Below are positions 9,348 to 64,000 of a DNA stretch of 64,000 nucleotides, piece after piece. The first letter of the stretch is position 1, and each line of letters begins with the position of its first letter. Under the pieces are notes generated by a model. That model was not told the origin of the DNA and searched no databases. It saw nothing but the letters and a program-made list of their open reading frames with translations. The position numbers and the translations under genes were made by a program. The DNA comes from Kiritimatiellia bacterium (lineage in GTDB: Bacteria > Verrucomicrobiota > Kiritimatiellia > CAIQIC01 > Lenti-01), in the NCBI GenBank assembly GCA_050176815.1, contig JBFXHR010000012.1, positions 15 to 64,014 of the forward strand. The letters are read 5' to 3'.

Positions 9348-12347
9348 TCAGGGCACCACGGTCCACCGGCCGGGCCAGAGGGCGGCTCGGCGCTGGATGG
9401 CCGGCGCATCGCTGCGCCGGATTGGGACGCGGAATCCGCTTTGGGACTGGTAGAGGCCAACGGCGAGATCCAGCGGTCCGGGAGGCGTTCCGGCGGGAAT
9501 CGAGAGGCGGCGCGTCTCCGCGAGGCCTTCGCGGGCGACGGGCCGGAGAGAAGCGTCGCCCCACAGGAGAAACAAGCCCCGGTAGTCGTCCTGCGCCACG
9601 AGCGCGCCGCGGGAATCGCGCACGTGGATGAACGTGATTTCCTGCCCGGGCTCGAAGCCGGCGGCGGCGGACCAATGCAGGCGCACCTCGATTTCGCCTC
9701 CGGCCTTCGCGTCCACGGGCCCGGTCTCGACGCCTTCGAGCCAAATGCCGTTGGCGAATTCCGTCGCGCAGGGCTTTTCCGGAAGATCGGCGGACTCGCG
9801 GCGGACCTGGACGGCCCGCGCGCCGCCGAGCCGCGCGACGGTCTCTTCCGGCAGCGCGGCCAGCGCGGCGGGACGCCAGCGAACGACCTCCTCCAGCAGC
9901 GCTGGTTGCGTTTTGCCGGTCTCTTTTCCCGCGCAAAGGCGGCGAATCGCCTCGGCCGCGCGCGCGGAGGAGTTGCCCAGCAGCAGGGTTTCGCCCGTCC
10001 ATCGGACAGCGGGCGGCAGCCCCAGGCCATCGGCAGTCCATCCGCCGGCGTTCACGGAGAAGACGCACCACTTGTTCACCGTGTCGAACTGGAATTCCGC
10101 GCCGTGGGCCCCGAGGGCGTGGCGCATGGCGTCCTCGTAGCGGGGTTCCACGATGAACACGCCAGGCCGCTCCGCCGCCACGCTCCCGTCGCGCGCGACG
10201 TTTCCCGGAGGGAAAACCCGGGCGGCCAGGCCCGCGAGCCGCTCTTCGGGAACCCATCGGCCGGCGAGCAACTGGTTGGAAATCCAGCGCGGCGCATAGA
10301 CGGCGGTCTCCGGCGCGCGTTTGAGCAGCCATTTGCCCAGCGCCTCCACCGCCGCGCTCGTATGGCGCCGAAGCAGGCCCTCGGAGGAATCCAGCGCGAC
10401 GACTTCCGCGAGACGCCAGCCCAGGCTGCGTCCACTCGCCTGCGCGTCGAGCAAGGTGATGCGCAGCGCCTGCGCGCCGGCCGCTTCCAGGCGGAATTCC
10501 GGGCGCGCCAGGCCGGACGAAAAATAGAGGCGCGGGCCGGAGCCTTCCAGCGGATTGACCGGTTCGTCCGCGAGCAGCGTTCGCCATTCGCCGCCGATCT
10601 GGACTTCCACGCGGATGCGGAACGAAAAGGCGAACGGATCCTCCACGATCGAGTGGGCGAACGCGAGCTGGATGGAATGGACGTCCTGCGGCTGGACGAA
10701 GGTCCATTCCAACGGGACGGCCGGCGCGGCGCCGGGCGACCAGAACGTGTCGAGGTTGCGATCCATGAGCGCGGATCTCCAGTCCCGGCCCGCGCCGTCG
10801 CGAAGGCTTTCGGTGTTTTCGGCCGGAATCTCCCGCAGCGAGACCGGAGGCCGGCGCACGTTGTACAGCAGGCTCCGGCGGCCGACCGCGATGGATTCCC
10901 ATTGCGCGCCCTGCTGGACCAGGAAGGAACCCACGCCGTTGAAGTCGGACGAATACGCGGGGGCATCCGACAGCTCCGCGCGGCGCAGGATGGGTTCGTA
11001 GAATTTTTGCCGGCCGTTGGACACGGCGAAGCGCTCGTCCAGCGCGAAGTTCAGCGGGAACAGCTGGATGGGCGCCAGCAGGGCGTCCGCCCCGGCGCGG
11101 GCGAGCGCCTCGCCGATGTCGCGATAGCCCGCCAGCGTCGCCGCGGATTTATGCCCCGACGCCGCCAGGGACGAGAGCGCCAACGCCCCTTGCCCCGCCG
11201 CGAGGGCGACGAGCAGGCCCCACGCCGCCGCCCGAAACGCCCGGGATCCGGACGCCGCGCACGCCACCCCCGCCAGCACCGCCAGGGCCGGCACCAGCGG
11301 AACCCAGTAGCGCGCCGTGTGGGTCCGGGTGAAGCCGGACGTCGCGAAGACCAGCGCGAACAGCGCGCAAAAAAGGATTGCGCCGCTCCGCGCATAGTTT
11401 TCCGGAAGCGAAGCCCGGCGCCGGGAAGCCATCGCCCTAAAAACCCCGGCCCCGGCCAGCCCCAGCACGACCGCGGCCAAGACCAGCGGCAACCCCGATC
11501 CCGCCGCGTTCCGCCCCTGCTGCAGCAACAAAAAGCGGTTCCACGAGTTGGACAGCGCTTCGCGCAGCGGCGCGTGCCCGCCGATCTGCGACATCGCCAG
11601 CGACGCCCACCCGTGCCGCGCGTTCCACGCCAGCCACGGCGCGAAGCCCAGGGCGAAACCCGCCAGGCCGGACGCGATCCCCGCCGGATGCCGCCAGAAC
11701 TTCCCGCGCATGCCGTGCAGCAGCAGCAGCGCGGCCGCGCCCAGCGCCGGCGCCACGATCATGTTCGACCACGCCCCGATACCCGCCAGCAGGCCCAGCG
11801 CGAAATAGCGCCCCCCCCCGACCGCATGCCCCCCGCGCAGACGGGCCGCCATCCGCGCCGCCGCGAAAATCGCCAGCGCATCCACGAACAGCGCGACCAT
11901 GTAGCCGCCCCGCGGGGCCGCCTGGAACTGGAAATAGACCAGCGGGCCAAACAGCCCCGCCAGCACGGCCGCCAGCCCACCCCGCGGGCCGGCGGCGTCG
12001 CGCGCCCAGCGCCACAACAAGAACAGCGCCGCCGACGCGAACAGCGCCGGACCCAGATTCACCGCGAATCCGTTCGATCCCAGCAGGCCCACCATCAGCG
12101 CGCTGGCCATCGGCTCGAGGCTGCCCATATAGGCCTGGCCGTAGAAAAAGACCGGGAACTCCTTCAGCGCGGCCATGTGGCGGGCCATCAGCGCGACCAC
12201 CGTCGAATCCGGATCCCCGATGCCCCGCGCCGCCCACGCCCCCGCGACCCGGACGGCGACGCCCAGCAGCAGCAGCGCCGCCGCCAGCCGATCGGCCCAA
12301 TCCCCGCGCTTCGTCGTTTCCGTCGCGTCGCTCATCGGGTCGCTCAA
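9348..12347 (-). CDS. PMT_2/GT39-like GT-C membrane glycosyltransferase fused to a C-terminal discoidin (F5/8 type C)-like domain
   Basis: N-terminal HMAALKEFPVFFYGQAYMGSLEP... and multiple TM helices (PMT_2-like). C-terminal segment ALMDRNLDTFWSPGAAPAVPLEWTFVQPQDVHSIQLAFA resembles the discoidin NxDxxTxW motif. 999 aa. Confidence 0.65.
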   Translation of the reverse strand: MSDPMSDATETTKRGDWADRLAAALLLLGVAVRVAGAWAARGIGDPDSTVVALMARHMAALKEFPVFFYGQAYMGSLEPMASALMVGLLGSNGFAVNLGPALFASAALFLLWRWARDAAGPRGGLAAVLAGLFGPLVYFQFQAAPRGGYMVALFVDALAIFAAARMAARLRGGHAVGGGRYFALGLLAGIGAWSNMIVAPALGAAALLLLHGMRGKFWRHPAGIASGLAGFALGFAPWLAWNARHGWASLAMSQIGGHAPLREALSNSWNRFLLLQQGRNAAGSGLPLVLAAVVLGLAGAGVFRAMASRRRASLPENYARSGAILFCALFALVFATSGFTRTHTARYWVPLVPALAVLAGVACAASGSRAFRAAAWGLLVALAAGQGALALSSLAASGHKSAATLAGYRDIGEALARAGADALLAPIQLFPLNFALDERFAVSNGRQKFYEPILRRAELSDAPAYSSDFNGVGSFLVQQGAQWESIAVGRRSLLYNVRRPPVSLREIPAENTESLRDGAGRDWRSALMDRNLDTFWSPGAAPAVPLEWTFVQPQDVHSIQLAFAHSIVEDPFAFSFRIRVEVQIGGEWRTLLADEPVNPLEGSGPRLYFSSGLARPEFRLEAAGAQALRITLLDAQASGRSLGWRLAEVVALDSSEGLLRRHTSAAVEALGKWLLKRAPETAVYAPRWISNQLLAGRWVPEERLAGLAARVFPPGNVARDGSVAAERPGVFIVEPRYEDAMRHALGAHGAEFQFDTVNKWCVFSVNAGGWTADGLGLPPAVRWTGETLLLGNSSARAAEAIRRLCAGKETGKTQPALLEEVVRWRPAALAALPEETVARLGGARAVQVRRESADLPEKPCATEFANGIWLEGVETGPVDAKAGGEIEVRLHWSAAAGFEPGQEITFIHVRDSRGALVAQDDYRGLFLLWGDASLRPVAREGLAETRRLSIPAGTPPGPLDLAVGLYQSQSGFRVPIRRSDAPAIQRRAALWPGRWTVVP

Positions 12348-17792: not shown

Positions 17793-18503
17793 ATGGCCAC
17801 CACCCTATTCATCCCCACCCTGAACGAGCTCGAAGCCATGCGCGTCGTCCTGCCCCAGATCGACCGGTCGTGGGTGGACCAGATCCTGGTCGTCGACGGC
17901 TCGACCGACGGCACCGCCGACTACGCCCGCGAGCACGGCTGCGAGGTCGTGGTCCAAAAGGAAAAAGGCCTGCGCCATGCCTTCATCGAAGGCTTTCCCC
18001 ACGTGCGCGGCGACTGGGTCATTACGTTCAGCCCCGACGGAAATTCGCCCGTCCGCGCCATCCCTCTCCTCATCGAAGAAATGAAAAAGGGCTACGACAT
18101 GGTGATCGCGTCCCGCTACCTGCCCCCGGCCAGGAGCGACGACGACGATCCCATGACCGCCTTCGGCAACTGGCTGTTCACGCACGCGATCAACGTCCTG
18201 CATGGACACGCCTGGAACCGCCCCTACACCGACGCGATGGTGATGTACCGCATCTACCGCACGAAGCTCTTCTACGAGCTGGACCTGGACCAGGAAGAAA
18301 GCTACGCCCCGGAAAAATGGTTCGGCACCATCCTCGGCATCGAGCCGCTGCTGTCCATCCGCGCCGCCAAGAAAAGGGTCAAGATCGGGGAAATCCCGGA
18401 AGACGAGCCCGCGCGCATCGGCGGCAAGCGCAAGCTCCAGCCCTTCCGCTGGGGCGGCGCCTACATGAGCCAGGTCTGGCGCGAATTGTATTTCTGGAAA
18501 TAG
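17793..18503 (+). CDS. GT2-family glycosyltransferase (polyprenyl-phosphate sugar synthase-like)
   Basis: MATTLFIPTLNELEAM...ILVVDGSTDGTADYA...DMVIASRY. GT2 DxD-type nucleotide-sugar binding region. Start chosen at MATTLF rather than the ORF-track upstream M. Confidence 0.7.
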   Translation: MATTLFIPTLNELEAMRVVLPQIDRSWVDQILVVDGSTDGTADYAREHGCEVVVQKEKGLRHAFIEGFPHVRGDWVITFSPDGNSPVRAIPLLIEEMKKGYDMVIASRYLPPARSDDDDPMTAFGNWLFTHAINVLHGHAWNRPYTDAMVMYRIYRTKLFYELDLDQEESYAPEKWFGTILGIEPLLSIRAAKKRVKIGEIPEDEPARIGGKRKLQPFRWGGAYMSQVWRELYFWK

Positions 18504-20713: not shown

Positions 20714-20967
20714 AACCCGTTCGCGCCTTCCCGGCCTCGTCGCCCATCTCATGCTGCCGCGAGATCCCGTGCGGCACTTCTGCGCCTTGGGGATGCCTCG
20801 ACCGGCCGCGGCCGGCCCGGCTTTGCCGAGGACATAGCCGCCCCCACCTTGTTTTCCGCCGGATCCATATCCTCCGGGAAAAGACCATGGAGGTACGGCG
20901 ATCGCGCGACCATCCAATTTTGGCCTTGTCGAAATCCAGAAAGCCTTCCAGATTGGATGGAAACGAG

Positions 20968-21133
20968 CCTCCCCGATGGCCACCCCCCTTTTCATCCCCA
21001 CCCTGAACGAGCTCGAAGCCATGCGCGTCGTCCGGCCCCAGATCGACCGCTCGCGGGTGGACCGGATTCTGGGGGTGGGCGGTTCGACCGACGCCGCCGC
21101 CGGGCATGTCCGCGAGACCGGGTTCCGGAATTA
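20968..21133 (+). pseudogene. Duplicated 5' fragment of the GT2 gene at 17793 (54-codon remnant ORF) immediately upstream of a TMTC-like gene
   Basis: 20965-21080 is about 85-90% identical to 17790-17905 (MATPLFIPTLNELEAMRVVRPQIDR... versus MATTLFIPTLNELEAMRVVLPQIDR...), then diverges and stops at TAG 21131-21133. Confidence 0.5.
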
Positions 21134-21145
21134 GATTTCTCCGCC

Positions 21146-23212
21146 ATGCAAGCCCAGGTCGCATCCCAACCGCGGTCGGCGCCCCACCCCCCGGCCGGCC
21201 GACGGCGGGTTTGGTTGCTTCCGGCTCTGTTGGCGTTGGTTCTGTTTGCCCCGGCCGTCGGATTCGATTTCATCAACTACGACGACGACCGCTACGTCTA
21301 CGACAATCCCCGCGTCACGGGCGGACCGACCGTGGAGAATCTGCGATGGGCGTTCACGGCCGTCCACGAGGACTGGTGGCTGCCGGTCCTGTGGATTTCC
21401 TACATGCTCGATTCGGCCCTGCTGGGCAAGGCTCCGGGGGGCTATCACCTGGTGAACGTGCTGTTGCACGCCGCGAATGCGGGCCTGCTCGGCTGGACGC
21501 TCTATCGCCTGACCCGCGCCCGCTGGCGCAGTCTCGCGGTGGCCGCGCTGTGGGCCGCGCATCCGCTGCGCATCGAATCCGTCGCCTGGATCACCGAACG
21601 CAAGGACGTGCTGAGCGGACTGTTCTTCTTTCTCGCGCTGCTCGCCTACGTCCGCCACGTCGAACGACCGTCCGCCGTTCGTTTCGGCCTCGTGTTCGGC
21701 GCCATGCTTCTCGGCCTGGCATCCAAGGCCTCGGTCATCGTCCTGCCGATTCTCCTCCTGTTGCTGGATTTCTGGCCCCTGCGCCGCGCCGAGCTCCCGT
21801 GGACGTCCGGCGCGGGAAAACCGTGGCGGCGCCTCGTCGCGGAAAAAATCCCGCTGTTTGCGCTGGCCGCGGTCTTTGCGGCCATCAATCTGCGCACGCA
21901 CGCCGGCGGAACCGGGCTCGGGTTGGATTACTCTTGGAGCCAGCGGGTCGCGTTGATTCCCGGCAACGTCTGGACCTACCTGCGGCTCGTGGCCTGGCCC
22001 GCGCATCTTTCCGTCTTCTATCCCGAAAACGATGCCGTGCCGATCGGCTCCGCGCTGGTCGCCCTGGCGGGACTGGCCGGGCTGACCGGCTGGTTCGCCC
22101 GACAAGCCCGGCGGCGCCCCCATTGGCCGGTCGGCTGGCTTTGGTTTCTCGTCGCGCTCCTGCCGATTCTCCGCGGCGTCCGCCTCGGAAACGCGGCCTA
22201 TGCCGACCGCTTCACGTATCTCCCTTCCATCGGGTTGACCCTGGCCGTCGTCTGGCAAGCGATGGGCGGCGCGGAGCGGAGCGCCGCCGCCCGCAGGGCA
22301 GGAGCGGGAGTCCTCGCGCTCCTGCTGGCCGCGTGCGTGGGCCAGACGGCCGCGGTTCTGCCGGCGTGGCGCCATTCGATTGGGCTTTATGAATACGCCC
22401 TGCGCTCGGAACCGGCCAACCCCGTTCTGCTCAACAATCTCGGAACCGCCCTGATGCTGGAGCAACGCAACGAAGAGGCCCTCGATCATTTCCGGCGCTC
22501 CCTCGCCGCCAATCCGGCCTATCTGCCCGCCCGGGCCAACCAGGCGCTGGTCCTGCATCGACTCGGCCGCCTCGCGGAAAGCCGGGCCGCGGCGGACCAA
22601 GGCCTCGACTGGGAACAGAATTCGCCGCCCCTCAACCACATGCTGGCCTCGCTTCTGCTGGGCGAAACGCCGCCGGAACCTCGGGCCGCGTTGCCGGATT
22701 CCCTCTCCCCCCGGGATCTGGGCCGACTGCTGGAACGCGGCTCCCTTCCGGCCGTGCTGGAGTTCCGCGATCTCTACCGCCGGCCGGCGCCCGCGCTCCT
22801 CGCGGAAATCCGGTCCGTCCAACTGGACTACGTCCGGCTGTGGCGCAGCGGCCGGAAGGACCGGGCCTGGCGTTTTTTCCTCTTTGCGCTGGCCGCCAAT
22901 CCGCACGACGTGTCCCTGCTCAACGATGCCGCCTGGCTGCTGGCCACCGATTCCGCGCCGCCCGCCGATGCGCGGCGCGCCCTCCTCCTGGCCCGGCGGG
23001 CCCATCGCCTCGCCGCGCCCCATCTCCAGGCTTCCATCCTCGACACGCTCGCCGCCGCGCTCGCCGCCGCCGGCCACTTCGACGAAGCGCAACGTGCCGC
23101 GCAAGAGGCCATCGGCTTGGCCACGCAAGCCGGCGACGCCCGCGCCGCCGACCAGATTTCCGCGCGCCTCGAAACCTATCGCAACCGCAAACCGTGGCGA
23201 GACGCCCCGTGA
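21146..23212 (+). CDS. TPR-repeat protein with N-terminal GT-C (PMT/TMTC-like, DUF1736-type) membrane domain. Putative protein O-mannosyl/glycosyltransferase, paralog 1.
   Basis: N-terminus FDFINYDDDRYVYDNPRV...HLVNVLLHAANAGLL...WAAHPLRIESVAWITERKDVLSGLFF, a signature shared with eukaryotic TMTC and bacterial DUF1736 proteins. C-terminal half is TPR-like repeats. Confidence 0.75.
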   Translation: MQAQVASQPRSAPHPPAGRRRVWLLPALLALVLFAPAVGFDFINYDDDRYVYDNPRVTGGPTVENLRWAFTAVHEDWWLPVLWISYMLDSALLGKAPGGYHLVNVLLHAANAGLLGWTLYRLTRARWRSLAVAALWAAHPLRIESVAWITERKDVLSGLFFFLALLAYVRHVERPSAVRFGLVFGAMLLGLASKASVIVLPILLLLLDFWPLRRAELPWTSGAGKPWRRLVAEKIPLFALAAVFAAINLRTHAGGTGLGLDYSWSQRVALIPGNVWTYLRLVAWPAHLSVFYPENDAVPIGSALVALAGLAGLTGWFARQARRRPHWPVGWLWFLVALLPILRGVRLGNAAYADRFTYLPSIGLTLAVVWQAMGGAERSAAARRAGAGVLALLLAACVGQTAAVLPAWRHSIGLYEYALRSEPANPVLLNNLGTALMLEQRNEEALDHFRRSLAANPAYLPARANQALVLHRLGRLAESRAAADQGLDWEQNSPPLNHMLASLLLGETPPEPRAALPDSLSPRDLGRLLERGSLPAVLEFRDLYRRPAPALLAEIRSVQLDYVRLWRSGRKDRAWRFFLFALAANPHDVSLLNDAAWLLATDSAPPADARRALLLARRAHRLAAPHLQASILDTLAAALAAAGHFDEAQRAAQEAIGLATQAGDARAADQISARLETYRNRKPWRDAP

Positions 23213-23458
23213 GTCCCCGCGCCGGACTTTCCGCCCCCACGCCTTTTTCCGCCTTTTTCCAAGGCCGTGTTTTTCGCCGATCTTTCGGCGGACGCGGCAT
23301 TTCCGCCGCATTTCTTCGGGTAAAACGATGCTGATTTATTTTTCACTTTTTGCATTGCCAGACCTTGCGCACCCGTGGTAAAAACAAAACCAAGATTGGA
23401 AAGGGTTTTTTCTTTCCACCGACAGTTTAAAAAGAAACGAATACCAAAGGAGAACACG

Positions 23459-24184
23459 ATGAAGAAATTGGCAATTGGTTTGACGATCGCCCTGGTGGCG
23501 GGAATGGCCTCGGCCGCGATTCTCGGATCGGACGACTTTAGCTATACCGGCGCGTTGACCGCCAATGGCTGGGTCGCCTACAGCGGCACGGACGGCAGCG
23601 TCACCGCCAACGGCAGCGTGGCCGCGGTCGGTTCGGGCGCGGAAGACATCCGCATGACGGCGTTTGGCGATCAGGGCAGCGGGACGGTCTATGCGTCCTT
23701 CACCCTGAACCTGCTTTCGGCCGCCACGGGCAGCGCCTACACGTTCGGCTTCATCGATGGTGCGACCATGGAAAGCCGCTGGGGCTTCACCGCCACCGCC
23801 TCGGACTACAGCATGGCCTCCTACGGCACGGGCACCGCCGTTATCGGCAACTCGTCCGCGATGTCCTTCTCGACGGACTACCTGATCACGATGAGCTACA
23901 ACGCCACGACGTTCACCCACAGCCTGTGGATCAACTCCGACGGCACCGATGAAGCCACCCCCGACATGACCCTCTCCGCGGGGACCAACACGGGCATCGA
24001 CAGCTTCTTCATCCGCCAGGCGACTCCGTTCGGCGCGGGCAGCGCGTCCTACACGGTGGACAGCCTGGTGGTCGGCTCGACGTTCGCGGACGTTACTCCG
24101 GCCGCCGTTCCCGAGCCCGCCACGATGGGCCTCCTCGGCCTCGGCGCCCTCGCGATGGTCCTCCGCCGCAAGATGAGCAAGTAA
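23459..24184 (+). CDS. PEP-CTERM sorting-domain secreted protein
   Basis: Signal peptide MKKLAIGLTIALVAGMASA. C-terminus VPEPATMGLLGLGALAMVLRRKMSK (PEP motif, TM helix, basic tail). Ser/Thr/Gly/Asn-rich body. Shine-Dalgarno aaggag 7 nt upstream of the ATG. Confidence 0.8.
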   Translation: MKKLAIGLTIALVAGMASAAILGSDDFSYTGALTANGWVAYSGTDGSVTANGSVAAVGSGAEDIRMTAFGDQGSGTVYASFTLNLLSAATGSAYTFGFIDGATMESRWGFTATASDYSMASYGTGTAVIGNSSAMSFSTDYLITMSYNATTFTHSLWINSDGTDEATPDMTLSAGTNTGIDSFFIRQATPFGAGSASYTVDSLVVGSTFADVTPAAVPEPATMGLLGLGALAMVLRRKMSK

Positions 24185-24207: not shown

Positions 24208-24234
24208 CCGCCGGGTTCGCCCGGCGGTTTTTTC
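24208..24234 (+). terminator. Intrinsic terminator after the PEP-CTERM gene
   Basis: GC hairpin ccgccgggttcgcccggcgg followed by tttttt. Confidence 0.55.
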
Positions 24235-24246
24235 GTGCCCTCTCTT

Positions 24247-24330
24247 CGGCGGTTCAGGTAGGGACGGCTCTCCGAGCCGTCCGTTTTCTTGCATATTCGG
24301 ACATCTCTTAGAGATGTCCCTACCACATCG
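24247..24330. repeat. REP-like compound palindromic element (GGTAGGGACG...hairpin...hairpin...CGTCCCTACC), copy 1, at the 3' end of the RAYT gene
   Basis: ggtaggGACGGCTCtccGAGCCGTCcgttttcttgcatattcGGACATCTCttaGAGATGTCCctacc. Its GTAGGGAC arm overlaps the RAYT stop codon. Confidence 0.6.
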
Positions 24331-24781
24331 GCGTCGGGACCTCCCACACGTGCGGCCAGTCCTCTGCTCGTGCAGTCAGCCCTTTGCGCACCGGATTCTG
24401 CCGGACGTAAAACGCCTTCTCTTCGTATTCCGTCGCGTGGCGGATGCGATGGTCGAAGAAATCCCGCGGCCATTCGATTCCCAACGTCCGCGCCGTCCAG
24501 CGCTTCCATTCCCTCATCACGGCCTTCATGCCGGGATTTTCCGGGAAACTGGCCATCAGATGCACGTGGTCGGGCATAACCAGAAACAGGCGCACCCACC
24601 AGCGGCCGGCCTCCATTTGCCGGCGGGCGTTCTCCCACAGCCGCCGGGGGCAGTCCATTTCCAGCAAGGGCGAACCGCCGCGCGATTTCGCGTTCAGGGT
24701 AATGAAAAACACCGCGCCGGCGGCGACCCACGGCGGCACCTCGTGCGGCAATCGCTTCCGCTGTGGAAGGAAATCGTTCAT
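24320..24781 (-). CDS. REP-associated tyrosine transposase (RAYT; IS200/IS605 Y1-HUH family, TnpA_REP-like)
   Basis: 153-aa product from MNDFLPQRKRLPH... with HUH motif MPDHVHLM. Flanked on both sides by the same palindromic repeat family. The ORF-track upstream extension is rejected. Confidence 0.7.
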   Translation of the reverse strand: MNDFLPQRKRLPHEVPPWVAAGAVFFITLNAKSRGGSPLLEMDCPRRLWENARRQMEAGRWWVRLFLVMPDHVHLMASFPENPGMKAVMREWKRWTARTLGIEWPRDFFDHRIRHATEYEEKAFYVRQNPVRKGLTARAEDWPHVWEVPTPMW

Positions 24782-24839
24782 CGTCGAAAAACGTATTTCC
24801 CCTGCGCCCGGCGAGCCGAAAGCTTTGAAGGCTGTTTGG

Positions 24840-24915
24840 CCGGAAGGTAGGGACGCTTCCACGAAGCGTCCGCGCTCTTCCCCAAACGGACGCCTCGCAG
24901 AGGCGTCCCTACCAT
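24840..24915. repeat. REP-like compound palindromic element, copy 2, just upstream of the RAYT start
   Basis: ggtaggGACGCTTCcacGAAGCGTCcgcgctcttccccaaacGGACGCCTCgcaGAGGCGTCCctacc. Same architecture as copy 1. Confidence 0.6.
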
Positions 24916-27023
24916 CCCTCCCGGTAGGCCTTTCCCTCCCGATACAGCGCCAGCCGCTTTTCGATTTCCCGCGCCAGCGCTTCATCCTTCGCCAACGCCA
25001 GCGCCTGCTCGCCGGCTTCCACGGCGCCCGCGTAATCTCCGGCCGCCGCCCGCGCGACGCCCAGCGTGTCCAGCACCGTTCCGGATTTCCATTGCGTTGC
25101 TTCCACGGCCCGTTCGGCCAAGCCCACCGCCCGCGCGACGATGTCCGGCGGCGTGCGTTCGTCCGTCGCCGCCAGCCAAGCCACGTTGTTCAGCAACTGG
25201 ACGTTCTGGCCCCACTCCGATTCAAGCAACCGATCGAAGTACCGCCAGGCGTAGGCCCGACCGCCCATCTGCCATTGAACCACGTAGTGCGGAAACAGCG
25301 ATTCATAGGCGGGCTGAATCGTCCCGCCCGCCCGGCGCGCGGATTCCACCAGCCGCCGGGCCTCGCTGGAACGTCCGGCCTCCAGATAGGCCCGGAGAAG
25401 TTCGTTGAGAATCCTCGCGTCGGCCGGCCGTCGCCGCCGCGCATCCTGCAGATGCGGAATCGCCTCCCCCGGGCGGCCTTCATGGAGCAGGGACATTCCC
25501 CAGGCGGTGGGGACCATCCAATATGCAGAGGGATCGTTCTGCCAAGACCGCAACACTTCGCGCGCCTCCTCGGTCCGGCCTTGCAGGACTTGGACGTATC
25601 CCAGATTGCCGGCGCAAATCGAGCGCTCCGCCTGATTTTGCACCTGAAGATCCAGCACCCGCTCGAAATGGCTTTCCGCTTCCTCCACGTCCCCCCGGGA
25701 AAAATGCCAGACCCCGGAGTTCATCAAAGCAATCGGCTGCCCGGGCGAAATCGCCAGCGCCCGCTCCAGCAAAGCGCCCGAGTCTTTCCAGACCGGCAAT
25801 TGCCGACGGGTCCATCCGGCCGCCACCGCCAAGGACAATCCCCCCGCCACGATCCACGCCCGGGTCCGCCCTCCCGCCGTTGCCAGCCATCCGGCTACGG
25901 CCAAAGACAGACCCATGGCCGGCAAGTAGGCGTAGCGGTCCGCGCGGCTCTGCGCGCCAAACGCCACGATGCCGCTCACCGGCAGCAGCGCCAAGACGAA
26001 CCACAGCCAGCCGACCAGTCCGGCCGGCCGGGTCCGCCGTCCATGTCCAACCGCCCACGTCCCCGCCGCGATCAGCGCCGCCGCGACCGCCACGCGCGTG
26101 GCGGTCAGCCCCGCATCGGCATACAGCACCGCCAGATTCCGGGGAACCAGCGTCCGCCACAGGTAGAAAACGATGTGGAGCGGCACGCGCGCCAGCCGCG
26201 CGCCAAGGCTTTCCGGATGCAGGCTTCCGGCCGCTTCGTGTCCCAGCACCGACAAGGCCGCCGAGGCGGCGGCCAGCCCCCAGAACAGCCATTTTTCCGC
26301 GATCAGACCGGGCCACTTCCGCAGATCCTGAGCCGTCCACTTCACCCGGCCCAACGGCCAAACATCCAATAGGAGCAGCAAGCCCGGCACGACCATCAGG
26401 GTCGATTTAGACATCAGACCCAACGCGAGCAACCCCGCCGCAGCGTAGAACCAGCCCCGCGCGCGGCGCGTTCCCGAACGGCTTTGGACATAGGCTCCAA
26501 GGCACAGGAGAAAAAACAGGCCGCTCAGCACGTCCTTGCGGCAGGAAACCCACGCAACGGCCTCCACCCGCAACGGATGCCACGCCCAGAACAGCGCGGC
26601 CCAGCAGGCCGCCCAGCGGTTCCCGGTCCAGCGGCGCAGCAGCCCAAACAACAGCACGGCATTCAGGGCGTGCAGCAGAACGTTGGTGAAGTGAAACGGA
26701 AACGGCCGGCGCCCGCCCCATTCCACGTCCAGCGCGTAGGACAAGCCCGTCAGCGGAATCCACAGGTTTTCCTGCATCGTCCCGAAAATCGTCCGCACCC
26801 CTTCCCCCGTGAAGCCGTTGGCCACCGCGGGATTGTCGACGACGTAGCGGTCGTCGTCCAGCAAGACGAAGTCGTAGCCCGTCGCCGGCCAAAAGACCGC
26901 CAAGGTTGAAGCCAAAATCAACAGCCCCAGGAATACATCAACGTGGCGGCGGAAAAAGCCGGTTGGCAGCGGAGATTTCACGCTGGTCTTCCTAGCCGAT
27001 TGGCAAACCGAAAACCAGTTCAA
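24909..27023 (-). CDS. TPR-repeat / GT-C (TMTC/PMT-like) membrane glycosyltransferase, paralog 2
   Basis: YDFVLLDDDRYVVDNPAV...HFTNVLLHALNAVLL...WAWHPLRVEAVAWVSCRKDVLSGLFF. C-terminal TPR repeats. Same domain order as 21146..23212. Confidence 0.75.
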   Translation of the reverse strand: MNWFSVCQSARKTSVKSPLPTGFFRRHVDVFLGLLILASTLAVFWPATGYDFVLLDDDRYVVDNPAVANGFTGEGVRTIFGTMQENLWIPLTGLSYALDVEWGGRRPFPFHFTNVLLHALNAVLLFGLLRRWTGNRWAACWAALFWAWHPLRVEAVAWVSCRKDVLSGLFFLLCLGAYVQSRSGTRRARGWFYAAAGLLALGLMSKSTLMVVPGLLLLLDVWPLGRVKWTAQDLRKWPGLIAEKWLFWGLAAASAALSVLGHEAAGSLHPESLGARLARVPLHIVFYLWRTLVPRNLAVLYADAGLTATRVAVAAALIAAGTWAVGHGRRTRPAGLVGWLWFVLALLPVSGIVAFGAQSRADRYAYLPAMGLSLAVAGWLATAGGRTRAWIVAGGLSLAVAAGWTRRQLPVWKDSGALLERALAISPGQPIALMNSGVWHFSRGDVEEAESHFERVLDLQVQNQAERSICAGNLGYVQVLQGRTEEAREVLRSWQNDPSAYWMVPTAWGMSLLHEGRPGEAIPHLQDARRRRPADARILNELLRAYLEAGRSSEARRLVESARRAGGTIQPAYESLFPHYVVQWQMGGRAYAWRYFDRLLESEWGQNVQLLNNVAWLAATDERTPPDIVARAVGLAERAVEATQWKSGTVLDTLGVARAAAGDYAGAVEAGEQALALAKDEALAREIEKRLALYREGKAYREGW

Positions 27024-27051: not shown

Positions 27052-28878
27052 CTATTCGCGATAGGGCGTTCCGGATCGATACAGATCCAGACGCTTCCGG
27101 ATCGCTTTCGCCTCTACCGGATCCGTTGTCAACGCCAATGCTTGCTCGCCGGCTTCGACGGCCCCCGCGAAATCCCCGGCGGCCGCGCGGGCCACGCCCA
27201 AGGTGTCCAGCATCGGCGCGAATTTTCCGTGGGTCCAAGCCACCGCGCGCTCCGCGTGTTCGGTTGCGCGCGCGCCCACTTCCGGCGTCGCCTCCGGATC
27301 CGTGGCCAGCAACCAGGCCAGATTGTTCAAGGCCCGCGCGGACAGCAAATCTTCTGCAACCGCCGCTTGGTAATGCCGGACGGCCTCTTTCTTGCGCCCC
27401 GCCGCGACCAGGGCGTTGGCGAGATTGACGCGCGCCTTGTTGCGCTTGGGCTGGATTTCGAGACTGCGCTGCAGATGGATTTCGGCTTCCGGCCAGCGGC
27501 CCTGCTCCATGTACCACATCCCCAGATTCCCGTGGGCAAGCGCATTGCGCTCCACAACGGAAATCACCTGCTGGAACAGGGTCTCCGTCGTCCGCCACAC
27601 GGCCGTCTGCCCGCGCGAAACCACCGCCAGCGCAATCGCCAGTACCGTCGCGGATGCCAGGAGGTAGGGACGCCTCTCCGAGGCGTCCGTTGACCTGCTT
27701 TGCCGGACGCCTTGGCAAGGCGTCCCTACCTGCCGGTCCCGGATTTTCCCCGCCCCCCAAACCGCCGCCACGATCAAACCAATATGCGGCAAATAGGTGT
27801 AGCGATCCGCCCAGGCCTGGCTCCCCACCTGCACCAGCCCGATCATCGGCACCAGCGCCCCTAAAAACCAGAACCAACCCACGGTCAACCAAGGCCGGCG
27901 GCGGAACTGGCCGGCCGCCCCCGCCGTCAAAACGGCCACCAACGCCAGCGAAACAGCCATCCGAAGCAGGGAATGGCCTCCGATCGGATGGGGATAGAAG
28001 GCGGCCAGGCCCGTTGGCCAAACCAGCATCCGCACGTACTCCGAATAGGCCACGCCCGCGTGGACGATACGCGTGGCCAACGGCAACACGTCCAATGCGC
28101 CAACGGCTCCGCCTTTCCCCTGCGCCCAAACCGTCGCGGCGCACGACCCGGCCGCCAGCGCGAACAACGGCCATTTTTCCGCCGCCAGTTTCCGCCACGG
28201 TTCCGCCGGCCAACGGCCCAGCGGCCAGACGTCCAGCAGCAGCAGCAGAAACGGAAGCGTCACCCAGGTCGGCTTGGCCATCAGGCTCAAGGCAAAAAAC
28301 ACCGCCACCGGGCCAATTCGAAACGTTGTAGGCCGGGTGCCCCCACCCGGCGCATTCCGTCCATGCATCCCCACCGCCAGCAGTCCGAACAGCATCGCCA
28401 ACACGTCCTTGCGCTCCGAAATCCAGACGACCGATTCCACGCGCAGCGGATGCACCGCCCACAGCGCCGCCGCCATCCACGACAACCCCGCGCGTCGCGT
28501 CATCCGGCGCAATGCCCAAAACAGCAAGATCGCGTTGGCCGCGTGCAGCAGCAGGTTCGTGAGATGGTGCCCGGCCGGATTCAAGCCGTACAGTTCCACG
28601 TCCGCCATGTGCGACAGCCAGGCTAGCGGGTGCCAGTTGGAGGCATGCCCCGTCGTCAAGGCCCAGCGAACGGCGGCGATCGTCAGCCCCTGCGCCACCT
28701 GCGGATTCTCGGTCACGTACACGTCGTCGTCGAACCGCACGAATCCGCATTCCAGCGCCCCGCCGAACGCGAAGAACACCAGCGCCGCCAGGCCCGCGGC
28801 GGCGACGGCCCCCCGCGCCCGCCGGGCCCTTTCCGGGAACGCCGTTTCCCCCAGCATCTCCTCGTTTCTTGCCGCCAT
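27052..28878 (-). CDS. TPR-repeat / GT-C (TMTC/PMT-like) membrane glycosyltransferase, paralog 3, carrying an in-frame REP insertion
   Basis: FVRFDDDVYVTENPQV...HLTNLLLHAANAILL...WAVHPLRVESVVWISERKDVLAMLF. C-terminal TPR repeats. Contains the extra loop segment ...VGTPCQGVRQSRSTDASERRPY... encoded by a REP element. Confidence 0.7.
   Translation of the reverse strand: MAARNEEMLGETAFPERARRARGAVAAAGLAALVFFAFGGALECGFVRFDDDVYVTENPQVAQGLTIAAVRWALTTGHASNWHPLAWLSHMADVELYGLNPAGHHLTNLLLHAANAILLFWALRRMTRRAGLSWMAAALWAVHPLRVESVVWISERKDVLAMLFGLLAVGMHGRNAPGGGTRPTTFRIGPVAVFFALSLMAKPTWVTLPFLLLLLDVWPLGRWPAEPWRKLAAEKWPLFALAAGSCAATVWAQGKGGAVGALDVLPLATRIVHAGVAYSEYVRMLVWPTGLAAFYPHPIGGHSLLRMAVSLALVAVLTAGAAGQFRRRPWLTVGWFWFLGALVPMIGLVQVGSQAWADRYTYLPHIGLIVAAVWGAGKIRDRQVGTPCQGVRQSRSTDASERRPYLLASATVLAIALAVVSRGQTAVWRTTETLFQQVISVVERNALAHGNLGMWYMEQGRWPEAEIHLQRSLEIQPKRNKARVNLANALVAAGRKKEAVRHYQAAVAEDLLSARALNNLAWLLATDPEATPEVGARATEHAERAVAWTHGKFAPMLDTLGVARAAAGDFAGAVEAGEQALALTTDPVEAKAIRKRLDLYRSGTPYRE
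27660..27728. repeat. REP-like compound palindromic element, copy 3, located inside CDS 27052..28878 and translated in-frame
   Basis: ggtaggGACGCCTCtccGAGGCGTCcgttgacctgctttgccGGACGCCTTGgcaAGGCGTCCctacc. The reverse complement translates in the gene frame as QVGTPCQGVRQSRSTDASERRPYLL. Confidence 0.6.
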
Positions 28879-60819: not shown

Positions 60820-60893
60820 TGGTTGCCCGACAAGGATTCGAACCTTGACTCTGGCCTCCAAAGGGCCGTGTGCTGCCATTACACCATCGGGCA
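60820..60893 (-). tRNA. tRNA-Gln (anticodon TTG)
   Basis: Reverse complement TGCCCGA-TG-GTGT-AATGGCA-GCAC-A-CGGCC-CTTTGGA-GGCCA-GAGTC-AAGG-TTCGAAT-CCTTG-TCGGGCA-A-CCA. Cloverleaf with anticodon loop cuUUGga. Sits directly upstream of prs. Confidence 0.7.
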
Positions 60894-61099: not shown

Positions 61100-61182
61100 G
61101 GATTCATGGCAGGGACGGATCTCCGAGCCGTCCGGGCTGTTGGATTGGATTCGGACGCCTCGGAGAGGCATCCCTACCTGTA
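61100..61182. repeat. Degenerate copy of the REP-like palindromic element family
   Basis: ggcaggGACGGATCtccGAGCCGTCCgggctgttggattggattcGGACGCCTCggaGAGGCATCCctacc. Same two-hairpin architecture with a few mismatches. Confidence 0.45.
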
Positions 61183-61414: not shown

Positions 61415-61491
61415 CGGGGCGTGGCTCAGCCTGGTAGAGCGCTTGGTTCGGGACCAAGAAGTCGCTGGTTCAAATCCAGTCGCCCCGACCA
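61415..61491 (+). tRNA. tRNA-Pro (anticodon CGG), CCA encoded
   Basis: CGGGGCG acceptor, GCTCAGCCTGGTAGAGC D-arm, anticodon arm CTTGG-TTCGGGA-CCAAG (anticodon CGG), T-arm GCTGG-TTCAAAT-CCAGT. Closely resembles E. coli proK. Confidence 0.85.
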
Positions 61492-61702: not shown

Positions 61703-61848
61703 TCCAACGAGTTGCAAAACGGCGCACCCCTACGGATTTCCGAGGTCGGCGGCGGGGTCGGGAGGTCGGCGCGAGCGGCAAGGCCGCCGCGCCGAGCGGC
61801 AGGGTCGGCTTTCTGGCCCGCTGGTTCCAAAGGGGGGGGCATCTCTGC
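61703..61848. repeat. Left copy of an inverted repeat of at least 140 bp (partner at 63858..64000)
   Basis: The reverse complement of 61703-61848 matches 63858-64000 with about 1 mismatch. The peptide MPPPLEPAGQKADPAARRGGLAARADLPTPPPTSEIRRGAPF is encoded by both copies on opposite strands. Confidence 0.7.
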
Positions 61849-62460: not shown

Positions 62461-64000
62461 ATGAAAGTGTTTCTTTACGCGCGGAAAAGCACGGACGACG
62501 AAGAGCGGCAGATCCTTTCGATTGATGCGCAGCGAAACGAACTGCGCGAATACGCCGCCAAGCAGGGGCTTGAAATCGTCTTTGAATTCGTGGAATCCAT
62601 GACCGCCAAGGAGCCGGGGCGACCGATCTTCAACGATATGCTTTCGAGGGTGGAGAAGGGCGAAGCGGAGGCACTTTTGGCGTGGCATCCCGACCGCCTC
62701 GCGCGCAATAGCGTGGACGGCGGGAAAATCATCTGGCTGGTGGACACGGGCAAACTGACGGCTCTAAAATTTCCCGCGTTTTGGTTTGAGAATACGCCGC
62801 AGGGAAAATTTGTTCTCAATATGGCGTTCGGTCAGTCGAAATATTATGTGGATGCGCTCTCGGAGAATGTGCGGCGCGGCATGCGGGAAAAGATACGGCG
62901 GGGCGTCTATCCGCACAAGCCACCCCTGGGCTATGTGAACGAGCCGCGCCTGCGTACCATCGAAATCCACCAGCAGAAAGCCCCGCTGGTCCGGCGAATG
63001 TTCGAGACCTACGCGACGGGACGGCAAAACTTCGACCAGATGACCGACCTTGCCGCGCAGTGGGGGCTTTTAAGCCATCAGGAAAGGCCGCTGGCCCGCA
63101 GCATGATTCCGATTATTCTCTCGGATCGGTTTTACATCGGGTTTTTCAAGTGGCGGGGCGACGAATACGAAGGGAAGCACGAGCCCTTGGTTTCCGTGGA
63201 TCTGTTCGAGCGCGTGCAACGGGTTTTGGGGGATCGGGGCCGGGGCCGCTACAAAACCAAGGATGTCCCGCGCGAATTGGCCTTCATGGGCTTTGTGCGT
63301 TGCGACGAATGCGGCGCCAGCGTGACGGCGGAGCGGCAGAAGGGACTGCATTACTACCGCTGCACCAAGAAACTCGGTGCCTGCAGGCTTACGGGGTATA
63401 TCCGCGAGGAATATCTTGCGGGACTGATGCGCGAGAAAATCCGCACGGTCGCCATTTCCGACGAGTGGGCCGAGTTGATGCTGGCTCAAATCGAAGTTTG
63501 GCAGCGCGAGGGTGCCGACCGCGTTGCAGTGGCGGGGCAACGCCACCGCAACCGCCTTGCAGAGATTGAAACGAAGGTCAAACGCCTGCTGGATGTATTC
63601 CTGGAGGGGACCATCACGCGGGAGGATTATGCCGCGCGAAAGGCCGAATTTTTCACCGAGAAAGCCGTTTTGCGCGAAAAAATCGCTCAAATCGAGTCCA
63701 CGGGAGGGTTCTGGCTCGAACCTCTCGAAAATTTCGTGAAAACCGCGAATTTGGCCGAAAAAACGGCATTTTCGGACGATTTTTCAAAAATTCGCGCGTT
63801 TTTTGAAAAAATCGGCTCGAACCTCTTCCTCTACCAGCCGAAAACGGACGAAAACGAAGCCGAAAACCGGATGCCCCCCCCTTTGGAACCAGCGGGCCAG
63901 AAAGCCGACCCTGCCGCTCGGCGCGGCGGCCTTGCCGCACGCGCCGACCTCCCGACCCCGCCGCCGACCTCGGAAATCCGTAGGGGTGCGCCGTTTTGCA
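62461..64000 (+). CDS. Large serine recombinase (resolvase/invertase N-domain, recombinase domain, zinc-ribbon). 3' end is beyond the window.
   Basis: MKVFLYARKSTDDEERQILSIDAQRNEL... (catalytic Ser in YARKST), ...LLAWHPDRLARN (conserved R), recombinase-domain and Cys cluster CDECGASVTAERQKGLHYYRCTKKLGAC. The open frame continues to position 64000. It is not in the ORF track because no stop falls in the window. Confidence 0.85.
   Translation, partial: MKVFLYARKSTDDEERQILSIDAQRNELREYAAKQGLEIVFEFVESMTAKEPGRPIFNDMLSRVEKGEAEALLAWHPDRLARNSVDGGKIIWLVDTGKLTALKFPAFWFENTPQGKFVLNMAFGQSKYYVDALSENVRRGMREKIRRGVYPHKPPLGYVNEPRLRTIEIHQQKAPLVRRMFETYATGRQNFDQMTDLAAQWGLLSHQERPLARSMIPIILSDRFYIGFFKWRGDEYEGKHEPLVSVDLFERVQRVLGDRGRGRYKTKDVPRELAFMGFVRCDECGASVTAERQKGLHYYRCTKKLGACRLTGYIREEYLAGLMREKIRTVAISDEWAELMLAQIEVWQREGADRVAVAGQRHRNRLAEIETKVKRLLDVFLEGTITREDYAARKAEFFTEKAVLREKIAQIESTGGFWLEPLENFVKTANLAEKTAFSDDFSKIRAFFEKIGSNLFLYQPKTDENEAENRMPPPLEPAGQKADPAARRGGLAARADLPTPPPTSEIRRGAPFC
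63858..64000. repeat. Right copy of the inverted repeat of at least 140 bp (partner 61703..61848). Lies inside the recombinase 3' coding region and reaches the window edge.
   Basis: See the left copy. The repeat may extend beyond the window. Confidence 0.7.

Follow-up and report, generated by a model that had tools for sequence, protein, structure and literature searches.

Does a transposase-like gene that lies between two compound palindromic repeats belong with those repeats as one system, and if so, of which kind? The question is raised by a 64,000-nucleotide stretch of contig JBFXHR010000012.1 from a Kiritimatiellia bacterium (assembly GCA_050176815.1; this whole stretch, with a G+C content of 66%, is referred to as the window), in which a gene for a 153-residue HUH/Y1 protein is flanked on both sides by inverted hairpins. 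This paper describes the gene, its repeats, and their relatives in other genomes. The locus is very probably a REPtron, i.e., a chromosomal gene for a tyrosine transposase that is associated with repetitive extragenic palindromes (REPs) and is known as RAYT, or TnpA_REP, bracketed by its cognate REPs (PMC3333891, PMC6006769). The REP-RAYT association, which had been proposed in a first-pass annotation of the sequence, is supported by the family profile and fold of the protein, by the dispersal of the repeats, and by the flanking of the RAYT gene on both sides in the window and in five other genomes. The anatomy of the locus, the catalytic residues, and the covariation within the repeat stems are likewise observed, and complete the basis of this assignment.

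The RAYT gene and its protein

The gene is convergent with that of a PEP-CTERM protein and occurs once in the 64-kb window (Table 1). The motif DHVHLM can be read in the translation of its open reading frame (ORF), in agreement with the earlier description of a HUH/Y1 gene between two repeat elements, and an identical 153-residue protein is annotated in NCBI as 'MAG: transposase [Kiritimatiellia bacterium]' (MAG, metagenome-assembled genome). The expected similarity to Y1 transposases was found in a profile search with Pfam Y1_Tnp (24.2 bits, cut-off 23). The NCBIfam model NF047646 (REP_Tyr_transpos) scored 78.9 bits (E 3e-22; curated cut-off 80) and also matched 31 of 31 aligned homologs (best E 5e-28), and the IS200/IS605 model NF033573 (transpos_IS200) reached 20 bits at a cut-off of 55. 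Homologs with E < 1e-5 numbered 327, and those with names belong to Kiritimatiellia, Opitutales, "Spartobacteria", and other Verrucomicrobiota. Many of them have been named "REP element-mobilizing transposase RayT" by the Joint Genome Institute (JGI), and the homolog of Cerasicoccus arenae carries the NCBI name "REP-associated tyrosine transposase".

The best PDB match by sequence was TnpA_REP of Escherichia coli (4er8, E 1.5e-9). In this alignment H72-V-H74 falls on H59-M60-H61, Y125 on Y115, and N129 on N119, the latter two being the nucleophile and a metal ligand in the E. coli enzyme (PMC3479197). The HUH motif H72-V-H74 is invariant in the 31 homologs. Tyr125 lies within YVRQNP (Y125-VRQ-N129-P130), in which no homolog of the alignment departs from the Y, N, or P; the class-2 signature Y-x3-NP is known to hold the catalytic tyrosine (PMC6006769). 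An AlphaFold2 model built on the 31 homologs (predicted local distance difference test score, 87.7; predicted template modeling score, 0.80) had 4er8_A as its top PDB match (E 3e-8, TM 0.70, root mean square deviation 2.3 Å), and the TnpA structures of IS608 and ISDra2 ranked below it in the fold search. On the basis of sequence and modeled fold, the window protein is assigned to the RAYT/TnpA_REP family. No sigma-70-like sites were detected in a promoter scan around the gene.

REP doublets in the window

The REP unit consists of GGTAG, a hairpin of 21 nt whose perfect stem (GGACG-N4, 9 bp) closes a 3-nt loop, and a G. At four of four window sites (doublets A to D) two such units are arranged in inverted orientation with their GTAG feet outward, separated by spacers that are 14-17 nt long and vary in sequence among the copies. 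The compound inverted-hairpin build noted in the first-pass annotation is therefore present; its length estimate of 70-80 nt was too high for elements of 68 nt, or 71 nt in the case of doublet D. The further copies that it had placed near 27660 and, in degenerate form, near 61100 were recovered as doublets C and D, and the EASLP-type peptides that it had noted were found in ORF translations spanning the repeats.

In all eight REP units of the window the stem comprises nine pairs, Watson-Crick or G-T, with a loop of 3 nt, and in six of the eight a perfect GTAG foot is combined with a perfect 9-bp stem. The remaining two units form doublet D; the foot of one is GCAG, and the stem of the other, whose GTAG foot is intact, contains a G-T pair at position 4 (GGAT). 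The six units of doublets A-C represent five stem variants, each perfectly paired, and one of these variants differs at stem position 5 by a double change from G:C to A:T. The second hairpin of doublet A (24299-24319), for example, reads GGACATCTC-TTA-GAGATGTCC. The sequence GTAGGGACG occurs five times in the window against 0.22 times expected, a count that was reached in 0 of 100 shuffles. Moreover, folding as single-stranded DNA, compared with shuffled sequences, gave z = -5.2, -6.5, -7.3, and -2.4 for doublets A, B, C, and D, respectively. An Rfam search returned three tRNAs only, and the repeats matched no family. Of the four doublets, three are extragenic, and an overlap of 5 nt with a stop codon occurs in two. 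Doublet A has the RAYT stop codon on one side and the terminator that follows the convergent PEP-CTERM gene on the other, and doublet D is intergenic, between tRNA-Gln (60820-60893) and tRNA-Pro (61415-61491).

Table 1. Coordinates of the RAYT gene, the REP doublets, and adjacent genes in the window
Feature	Position	Strand	Description
RAYT / TnpA_REP gene, 153 aa	24320..24781	minus	ORF, ATG at 24781, stop TAG 24322-24320
REP doublet A, 68 nt, REPIN-like	24257..24324		GGTAGGGACGGCTCTCCGAGCCGTCCG - 14 nt - CGGACATCTCTTAGAGATGTCCCTACC
Parts of doublet A			GGTAG 24257-24261; hairpin 24262-24282; spacer 24284-24297; hairpin 24299-24319; CTACC 24320-24324
REP doublet B, 68 nt	24846..24913		build as doublet A; upstream of RAYT gene
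REP doublet C, 68 nt, both arms intact	27663..27730		within 608-aa ORF 27052-28878 (minus)
REP doublet D, 71 nt, degenerate	61108..61178		left foot GGCAG, mismatch in left stem, right arm GGCATCC, spacer 17 nt
704-aa multi-pass membrane + TPR protein	24909..27023	minus	ends at REP foot of doublet B
608-aa membrane + TPR protein, paralogous to the 704-aa protein	27052..28878	minus	carries doublet C
PEP-CTERM protein gene	23375..24184	plus	convergent with RAYT gene; context only, not part of the element

Linkage of gene and repeats in other genomes

For a survey of linkage, DNA was fetched around RAYT homologs that had been chosen by protein similarity alone. In five of five other genomes of the Planctomycetes-Verrucomicrobia-Chlamydiae (PVC) group (47-72% identity), repeats with the GTAGGGAC foot were found on both sides of the gene. 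At locus L001 (65% identity) the doublets lie at 9927-9992 and 10474-10539, with units identical to those of the window; at L004 (72%), which shares its chromosomal RAYT/PEP-CTERM neighbourhood with the window, a doublet lies upstream, and a doublet and a tandem array lie downstream. L088 (47.5%) has repeats on both sides and was also reached independently via the DNA pattern. The locus in Kiritimatiellae (L126, 54%) has GGTAGGGACAGCAG-tccctt-GCTGTCCG, and that of a Cerasicoccus arenae isolate (L125, 47%) has GTAGGGACACCGGGCTCCACC arms placed foot-to-foot. The array in L004 (770-930, downstream of the RAYT homolog) comprises about five tandem REP units (GGACGTTTCGTAGAAACGTCCCTACC plus a 10-nt linker) with a period of 36 nt and in one orientation.

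The repeats are not unique to this locus, as the window holds two more doublets, and a scan for the complete doublet pattern in one genome per GTDB species detected it in at least 120 stretches, which belong to genomes of Verrucomicrobiota, Lentisphaerota, and Kiritimatiellia. The groups among the matches listed include Chthoniobacterales, Opitutales, Verrucomicrobiales, Limisphaerales, Akkermansiaceae, Lentisphaerota, and Kiritimatiellae, and 24 of the 120 doublet loci listed carry the label of a single MAG, SMAG_U14751. Long open frames read through 17% of the doublets as compared with 50% of random segments, indicating that doublets are depleted from open frames.

Covariation was determined in 309 REP units that had been selected on their outer bases only. 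Among these, 28 inner-stem variants were found, and all four inner pairs were Watson-Crick in 80% of the units versus 12.7% when the 3' halves were shuffled. The stem structure of the REP is maintained by compensatory change and is under selection. The base after the hairpin, which was unconstrained in the search, is a G in 91% of the units, and no conservation beyond the foot was detected among the 309 units.

Doublet matches were also obtained in MAGs labelled Candidatus Acidoferrum, Luteitalea, and Bifidobacteriaceae. SMAG_U14751, labelled Candidatus Acidoferrum, contains many copies (L008, L010, L011, L098, L114, and about 20 more loci). A spread of the repeats to Acidobacteriota, which the many matches under the first two labels might suggest, was considered and rejected, as these labels are probably wrong: the MutL protein on the L098 contig has its best named relatives in Verrucomicrobiota (72-73% identity), which makes the Candidatus Acidoferrum label of SMAG_U14751 doubtful.

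Stop codons and an in-frame doublet

The stop codon TAG of the RAYT gene (24322-24320) coincides with the TAG in the GGTAG foot of doublet A (TGG TAG), and the same holds for the homologs in L088 (TGG TAG; 2612-2617) and L004 (AGG TAG; 668-672). In L001 the TAG stop directly precedes the GGTAG foot and does not lie inside it. The C-terminal residue is W, R, or G in 11 of the 12 closest aligned homologs (at least 58% identity), protein ends that would fit a terminal xGG-TAG corresponding to the foot GGTAG. At the other flank, the CTACC foot of doublet B (24909-24913) provides the TAG stop of the gene for the 704-residue protein together with the two codon bases that precede it. This protein ends in ...YREGW*, a Gly-Trp extension relative to its orthologs (...WRP*, ...WRE*) and its paralog (...YRE*), which stop two residues earlier.

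Doublet C is read through in frame (23 codons, encoding VGTPCQGVRQSRSTDASERRPYL) and sits in a loop ahead of the last predicted transmembrane helix of the 608-residue protein. The same doublet is found at this site in L127 (56% identity; ~2610-2690), with one foot decayed and an equal spacer length, and one of its arms is near-identical to that of the window even though the host proteins are only 56% identical. A decayed remnant occupies the site in L128, and a different GTAG-REP doublet is found there in L129 (65% identity); the homologs with an insert are 55-65% identical. No insert is present at the site in L130, in further homologs, or in the window paralog. Within this multi-paralog family, doublet C may be either an old in-frame insertion or a mark of a recurrent hot spot, as far as sequence comparison indicates. 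A search with the 31-residue REP-encoded peptide of the window against 1.84 billion representatives returned only two unrelated tandem-repeat proteins, the query being too short to be informative.

Alternative explanations

Several observations weigh against the assignment as a REPtron, or against a functional one. The REP_Tyr_transpos score lies 1 bit under the curated cut-off of that model. The WQ motif and the D/E-H...R set, which contact GTAG and the hairpin, are represented by W104, D110, H111, and R114, and the set is incomplete in W104-P105: position 105 is Pro (CCG, 24467-24469) in the window and Gln in 30 of 30 aligned homologs, so the deviation is one of the window copy and not of the clade. 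The corresponding Q95 of E. coli TnpA_REP inserts into the bound REP DNA (PMC3479197, PMC6006769), and the Q105P change could either lower the activity of the enzyme or reflect an error in the MAG consensus (CCG for CAG). The C-terminal tail is short, with about 12 residues after DWPH compared with about 30 after DWPF in E. coli, and most of the part that bears the E. coli metal ligand E161 is missing. Moreover, four doublets in 64 kb is a modest number. Finally, the syntenic relative L130, with a MarR gene, two membrane-TPR paralogs, and a PEP-CTERM gene, has neither a RAYT gene nor doublets, so that the system is dispensable.

Some of these points are shared by the view that the system is a fossil, with a RAYT that is inactivated or attenuated and with doublets that are immobile relics and serve now only as structural or RNA-level elements such as mRNA 3' hairpins, stop-codon donors, or a tolerated protein loop. 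The substitution at a near-invariant DNA-contact position, the degeneracy of doublet D, the location of doublets exactly at the 3' ends of two genes to which they donate stop codons, and the retention of doublet C in frame, with decayed copies at the same site in homologs, would all fit such a history. We nevertheless consider it rather unlikely, given that the ORF is intact and of full length, HUH, Tyr, and N129 are conserved, the stems are perfect in three of the four doublets, and the lone CCG-versus-CAG difference could be a consensus error. Moreover, this view concerns the current activity of the locus and not its identity, and is compatible with the assignment as a REPtron.

Two further explanations bear on identity itself. 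An autonomous IS200/IS605-type insertion sequence, with a classical TnpA, flanks that are left- and right-end hairpins, and a mobile unit of 660 bp, would share the HUH/Y1 fold, and it could draw on the weak matches to Pfam Y1_Tnp and transpos_IS200, on IS608 and ISDra2 TnpA as secondary fold matches, and on the fact that hairpins bracket the gene. It is made highly improbable by the profile scores (20 bits against a cut-off of 55 for the IS200 model, and 79 for REP_Tyr_transpos) and by the distribution of gene and repeats, as the window contains one gene copy, whereas doublets unaccompanied by the gene are found at two further sites and, beyond the window, in at least 120 stretches. In addition, the gene has a symmetric doublet of the same repeat family on either side and lacks distinct left and right ends, and the neighbourhood is common to L004 at 72% protein identity, as expected of a vertically inherited gene. 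Regulatory hairpins of the host, whether terminators, attenuators, or protein-binding sites, that stand beside a transposase-like gene by coincidence would account for the GC-rich sequence, for the T-rich stretch that follows one doublet A arm and was flagged as terminator-like, and for the position of doublets at gene ends. The T-run is, however, absent from most arms, one doublet lies inside an ORF, none of the repeats has an Rfam counterpart, and the adjacency recurs in six genomes with different gene neighbourhoods. An invariant GTAG foot next to an inner stem that varies with compensation is, furthermore, the pattern expected for recognition by a RAYT, and a coincidence is hardly credible.

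Comparison with known systems

Among the closest known systems is the REPtron of E. coli K-12 (TnpA_REP or RAYT yafM, bacterial interspersed mosaic elements, structure 4er8), which belongs to RAYT group 2 and TnpAY1 subclass 2.2. Both systems have the HUH/Y1 fold with the HUH histidines, the catalytic Tyr, and the Asn of Y-x3-NP, a gene that is single-copy (for the window, within its 64 kb) and flanked by inverted REP pairs, repeats dispersed to further sites (four doublets in the window), and a GTAG 5' of the hairpin. The two enzymes are, however, only 25% identical in sequence; the HUH motif is DHVH in the window protein and DHLH in E. coli, an Asp replaces E100, and of the long inhibitory C-terminal tail that carries E161 in E. 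coli the window protein has a much shorter form or none at all. Furthermore, the E. coli REPs are longer, imperfect, and bulged, in contrast to the perfect 9-bp stems of the window, and the hosts are Enterobacteria and Kiritimatiellia, respectively.

The REPtron of Stenotrophomonas maltophilia (Sm) and the REPIN-RAYT systems of Pseudomonas (RAYT group 3, subclass 2.5) share with the window a protein of about 150 residues, the DHxH, WQ (W104-P105 in the window copy), and YI..NP motifs, and REP doublets (REPINs) as the presumed mobile unit. The S. maltophilia REP is an 8-bp perfect palindrome with a 3-nt loop and GTAG directly before it (PMC8266576), which the window REP (GTAG, 9-bp stem, 3-nt loop) closely resembles; the stem base GGACG...CGTCC and the PVC-group host are different. 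The Y motif YVRQNP (YIRQNP in homologs) fits subclass 2.7 (YI[LR][NQ]NP, [ND]HVH) at least as well as subclass 2.5 (YI[VI]ANP), and the window protein appears to lie between these two subclasses in a comparison by motifs only.

Within the PVC group, GTAG-17 to GTAG-20 REP families, often as dimers, have been described in Opitutus terrae (Di Nocera et al. 2013, PMC3733652). In this species genes take their TAG stop codon from a REP foot, and many REP dimers lie in frame within genes, where they encode 20-30 residues; such intragenic dimers are most numerous in O. terrae (PMC3733652). The PVC host, GTAG feet, dimers, stop donation, and in-frame intragenic copies are thus common to both. The REP-encoded peptides differ, being VGPALAAG, GTGVPPV, and GRDARAT in O. 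terrae and GTPxxGVR...DASxRRPYL or EASLP here, and on these peptides alone the window repeats can be regarded as a different family of the same kind. Small palindromes that are in frame in genes and are kept at the same site in orthologs, as observed for doublet C, are also known as Rickettsia palindromic elements; unlike the family of doublet C, these form a CGTC-tagged group, are longer, and have no established link to a RAYT.

Proposed mechanism

By analogy with the TnpA_REP enzymes of E. coli and Stenotrophomonas, the window enzyme would bind one REP hairpin and its 5' GTAG on single-stranded DNA. Cleavage would then take place nearby, at a CT dinucleotide as in the enzymes studied; for example, a CT dinucleotide is the site at which the S. 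maltophilia TnpA_REP cuts REP_Sm (PMC8266576). In this step Tyr125 would form a 5'-phosphotyrosine link, with the HUH histidines holding the metal. Rejoining of the strands would allow doublets to be excised or copied to new sites, and the gene would stay single-copy and in place. Owing to the symmetry of the doublet, a REP is present at the 5' end of either strand and a CTAC, with its CT dinucleotide, at the 3' end, and we suggest that these two features could mark the boundaries of the element. REP binding, the chemistry and site of cleavage, and present-day activity of the enzyme are all presumed here from the enzymes studied.

Significance of the locus

The locus is an ordinary example of a system familiar from Proteobacteria; neither its kind nor its class of mechanism is new. 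The first-pass annotation had implied novelty outside the Proteobacteria, which is overstated since GTAG-REPs were reported in the PVC bacterium O. terrae in 2013 (PMC3733652). A literature search on Kiritimatiellia or Lentisphaerae in combination with REP or RAYT found nothing relevant, and one on the foot GTAGGGAC gave only unrelated papers among the matches listed. The present data extend the system of REPs or REPINs with a domesticated transposase to Kiritimatiellia, and reveal one REP design that is common across a wide PVC range. They are also of value for annotation: the 68-nt doublets create spurious ORFs and EASLP-type peptides and break assemblies, and they supply genes with stop codons and real proteins with in-frame loops. 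Moreover, the data provide a RAYT-REP pair from outside the Proteobacteria that has a simple, perfect hairpin and is amenable to biochemistry.

It is possible, though this is put forward tentatively, that one RAYT clade and one REP design (GGTAGGGAC...GTCC(G), comprising foot and stem base) have been co-inherited across Verrucomicrobiota, Lentisphaerota, and Kiritimatiellia. Co-inheritance would fit the locking of the RAYT stop codon in a REP foot, the fixation of the outer REP bases while the inner stem diversifies, and the capacity of doublets to outlast their carrier genes in conservation (a near-identical arm in proteins of 56% identity, at the same in-frame site). If true, this would be a very old, phylum-spanning REPIN-RAYT partnership with active homogenization or re-insertion, unlike the lineage-restricted systems of Proteobacteria.

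Neighbouring genes and other repeats

Three paralogous membrane + TPR genes (20849-23212 (+), 24909-27023 (-), and 27052-28878 (-)) cluster around the PEP-CTERM gene, and this cluster and a MarR gene are syntenic in L130 and L128. The first-pass annotation had placed the locus in a glycosylation region, a claim that could not be confirmed by Pfam and PDB searches of the neighbours, in which TPR and PEP-CTERM were the features detected. Pfam searches that covered ten ORFs of the neighbourhood, and separately the N-terminal membrane domain, identified TPR, PEP-CTERM, and a DinG-like helicase, and a PDB profile search for the neighbour proteins returned TPR proteins only. The sole support for glycosylation is the name "protein O-mannosyl-transferase" given by JGI to some homologs. 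Directly after the PEP-CTERM gene, at 24209-24236, a GC-rich hairpin followed by TTTTTT has the form of a typical intrinsic terminator that was unlisted by the terminator scan; L004 has a matching structure after its PEP-CTERM gene.

Two longer repeats were also observed in the window. A 146-nt direct repeat (17793-17938 and 20976-21121; 86% identity) has its copies 3.2 kb apart, in a region without Pfam-recognisable ORFs. A 131-nt inverted repeat, for which Pfam gave no match on the ORFs between and over its arms, lies at 61713-61843 and 63870-64000; the arms are 99% complementary and 2,026 nt apart, and the second reaches the end of the window.

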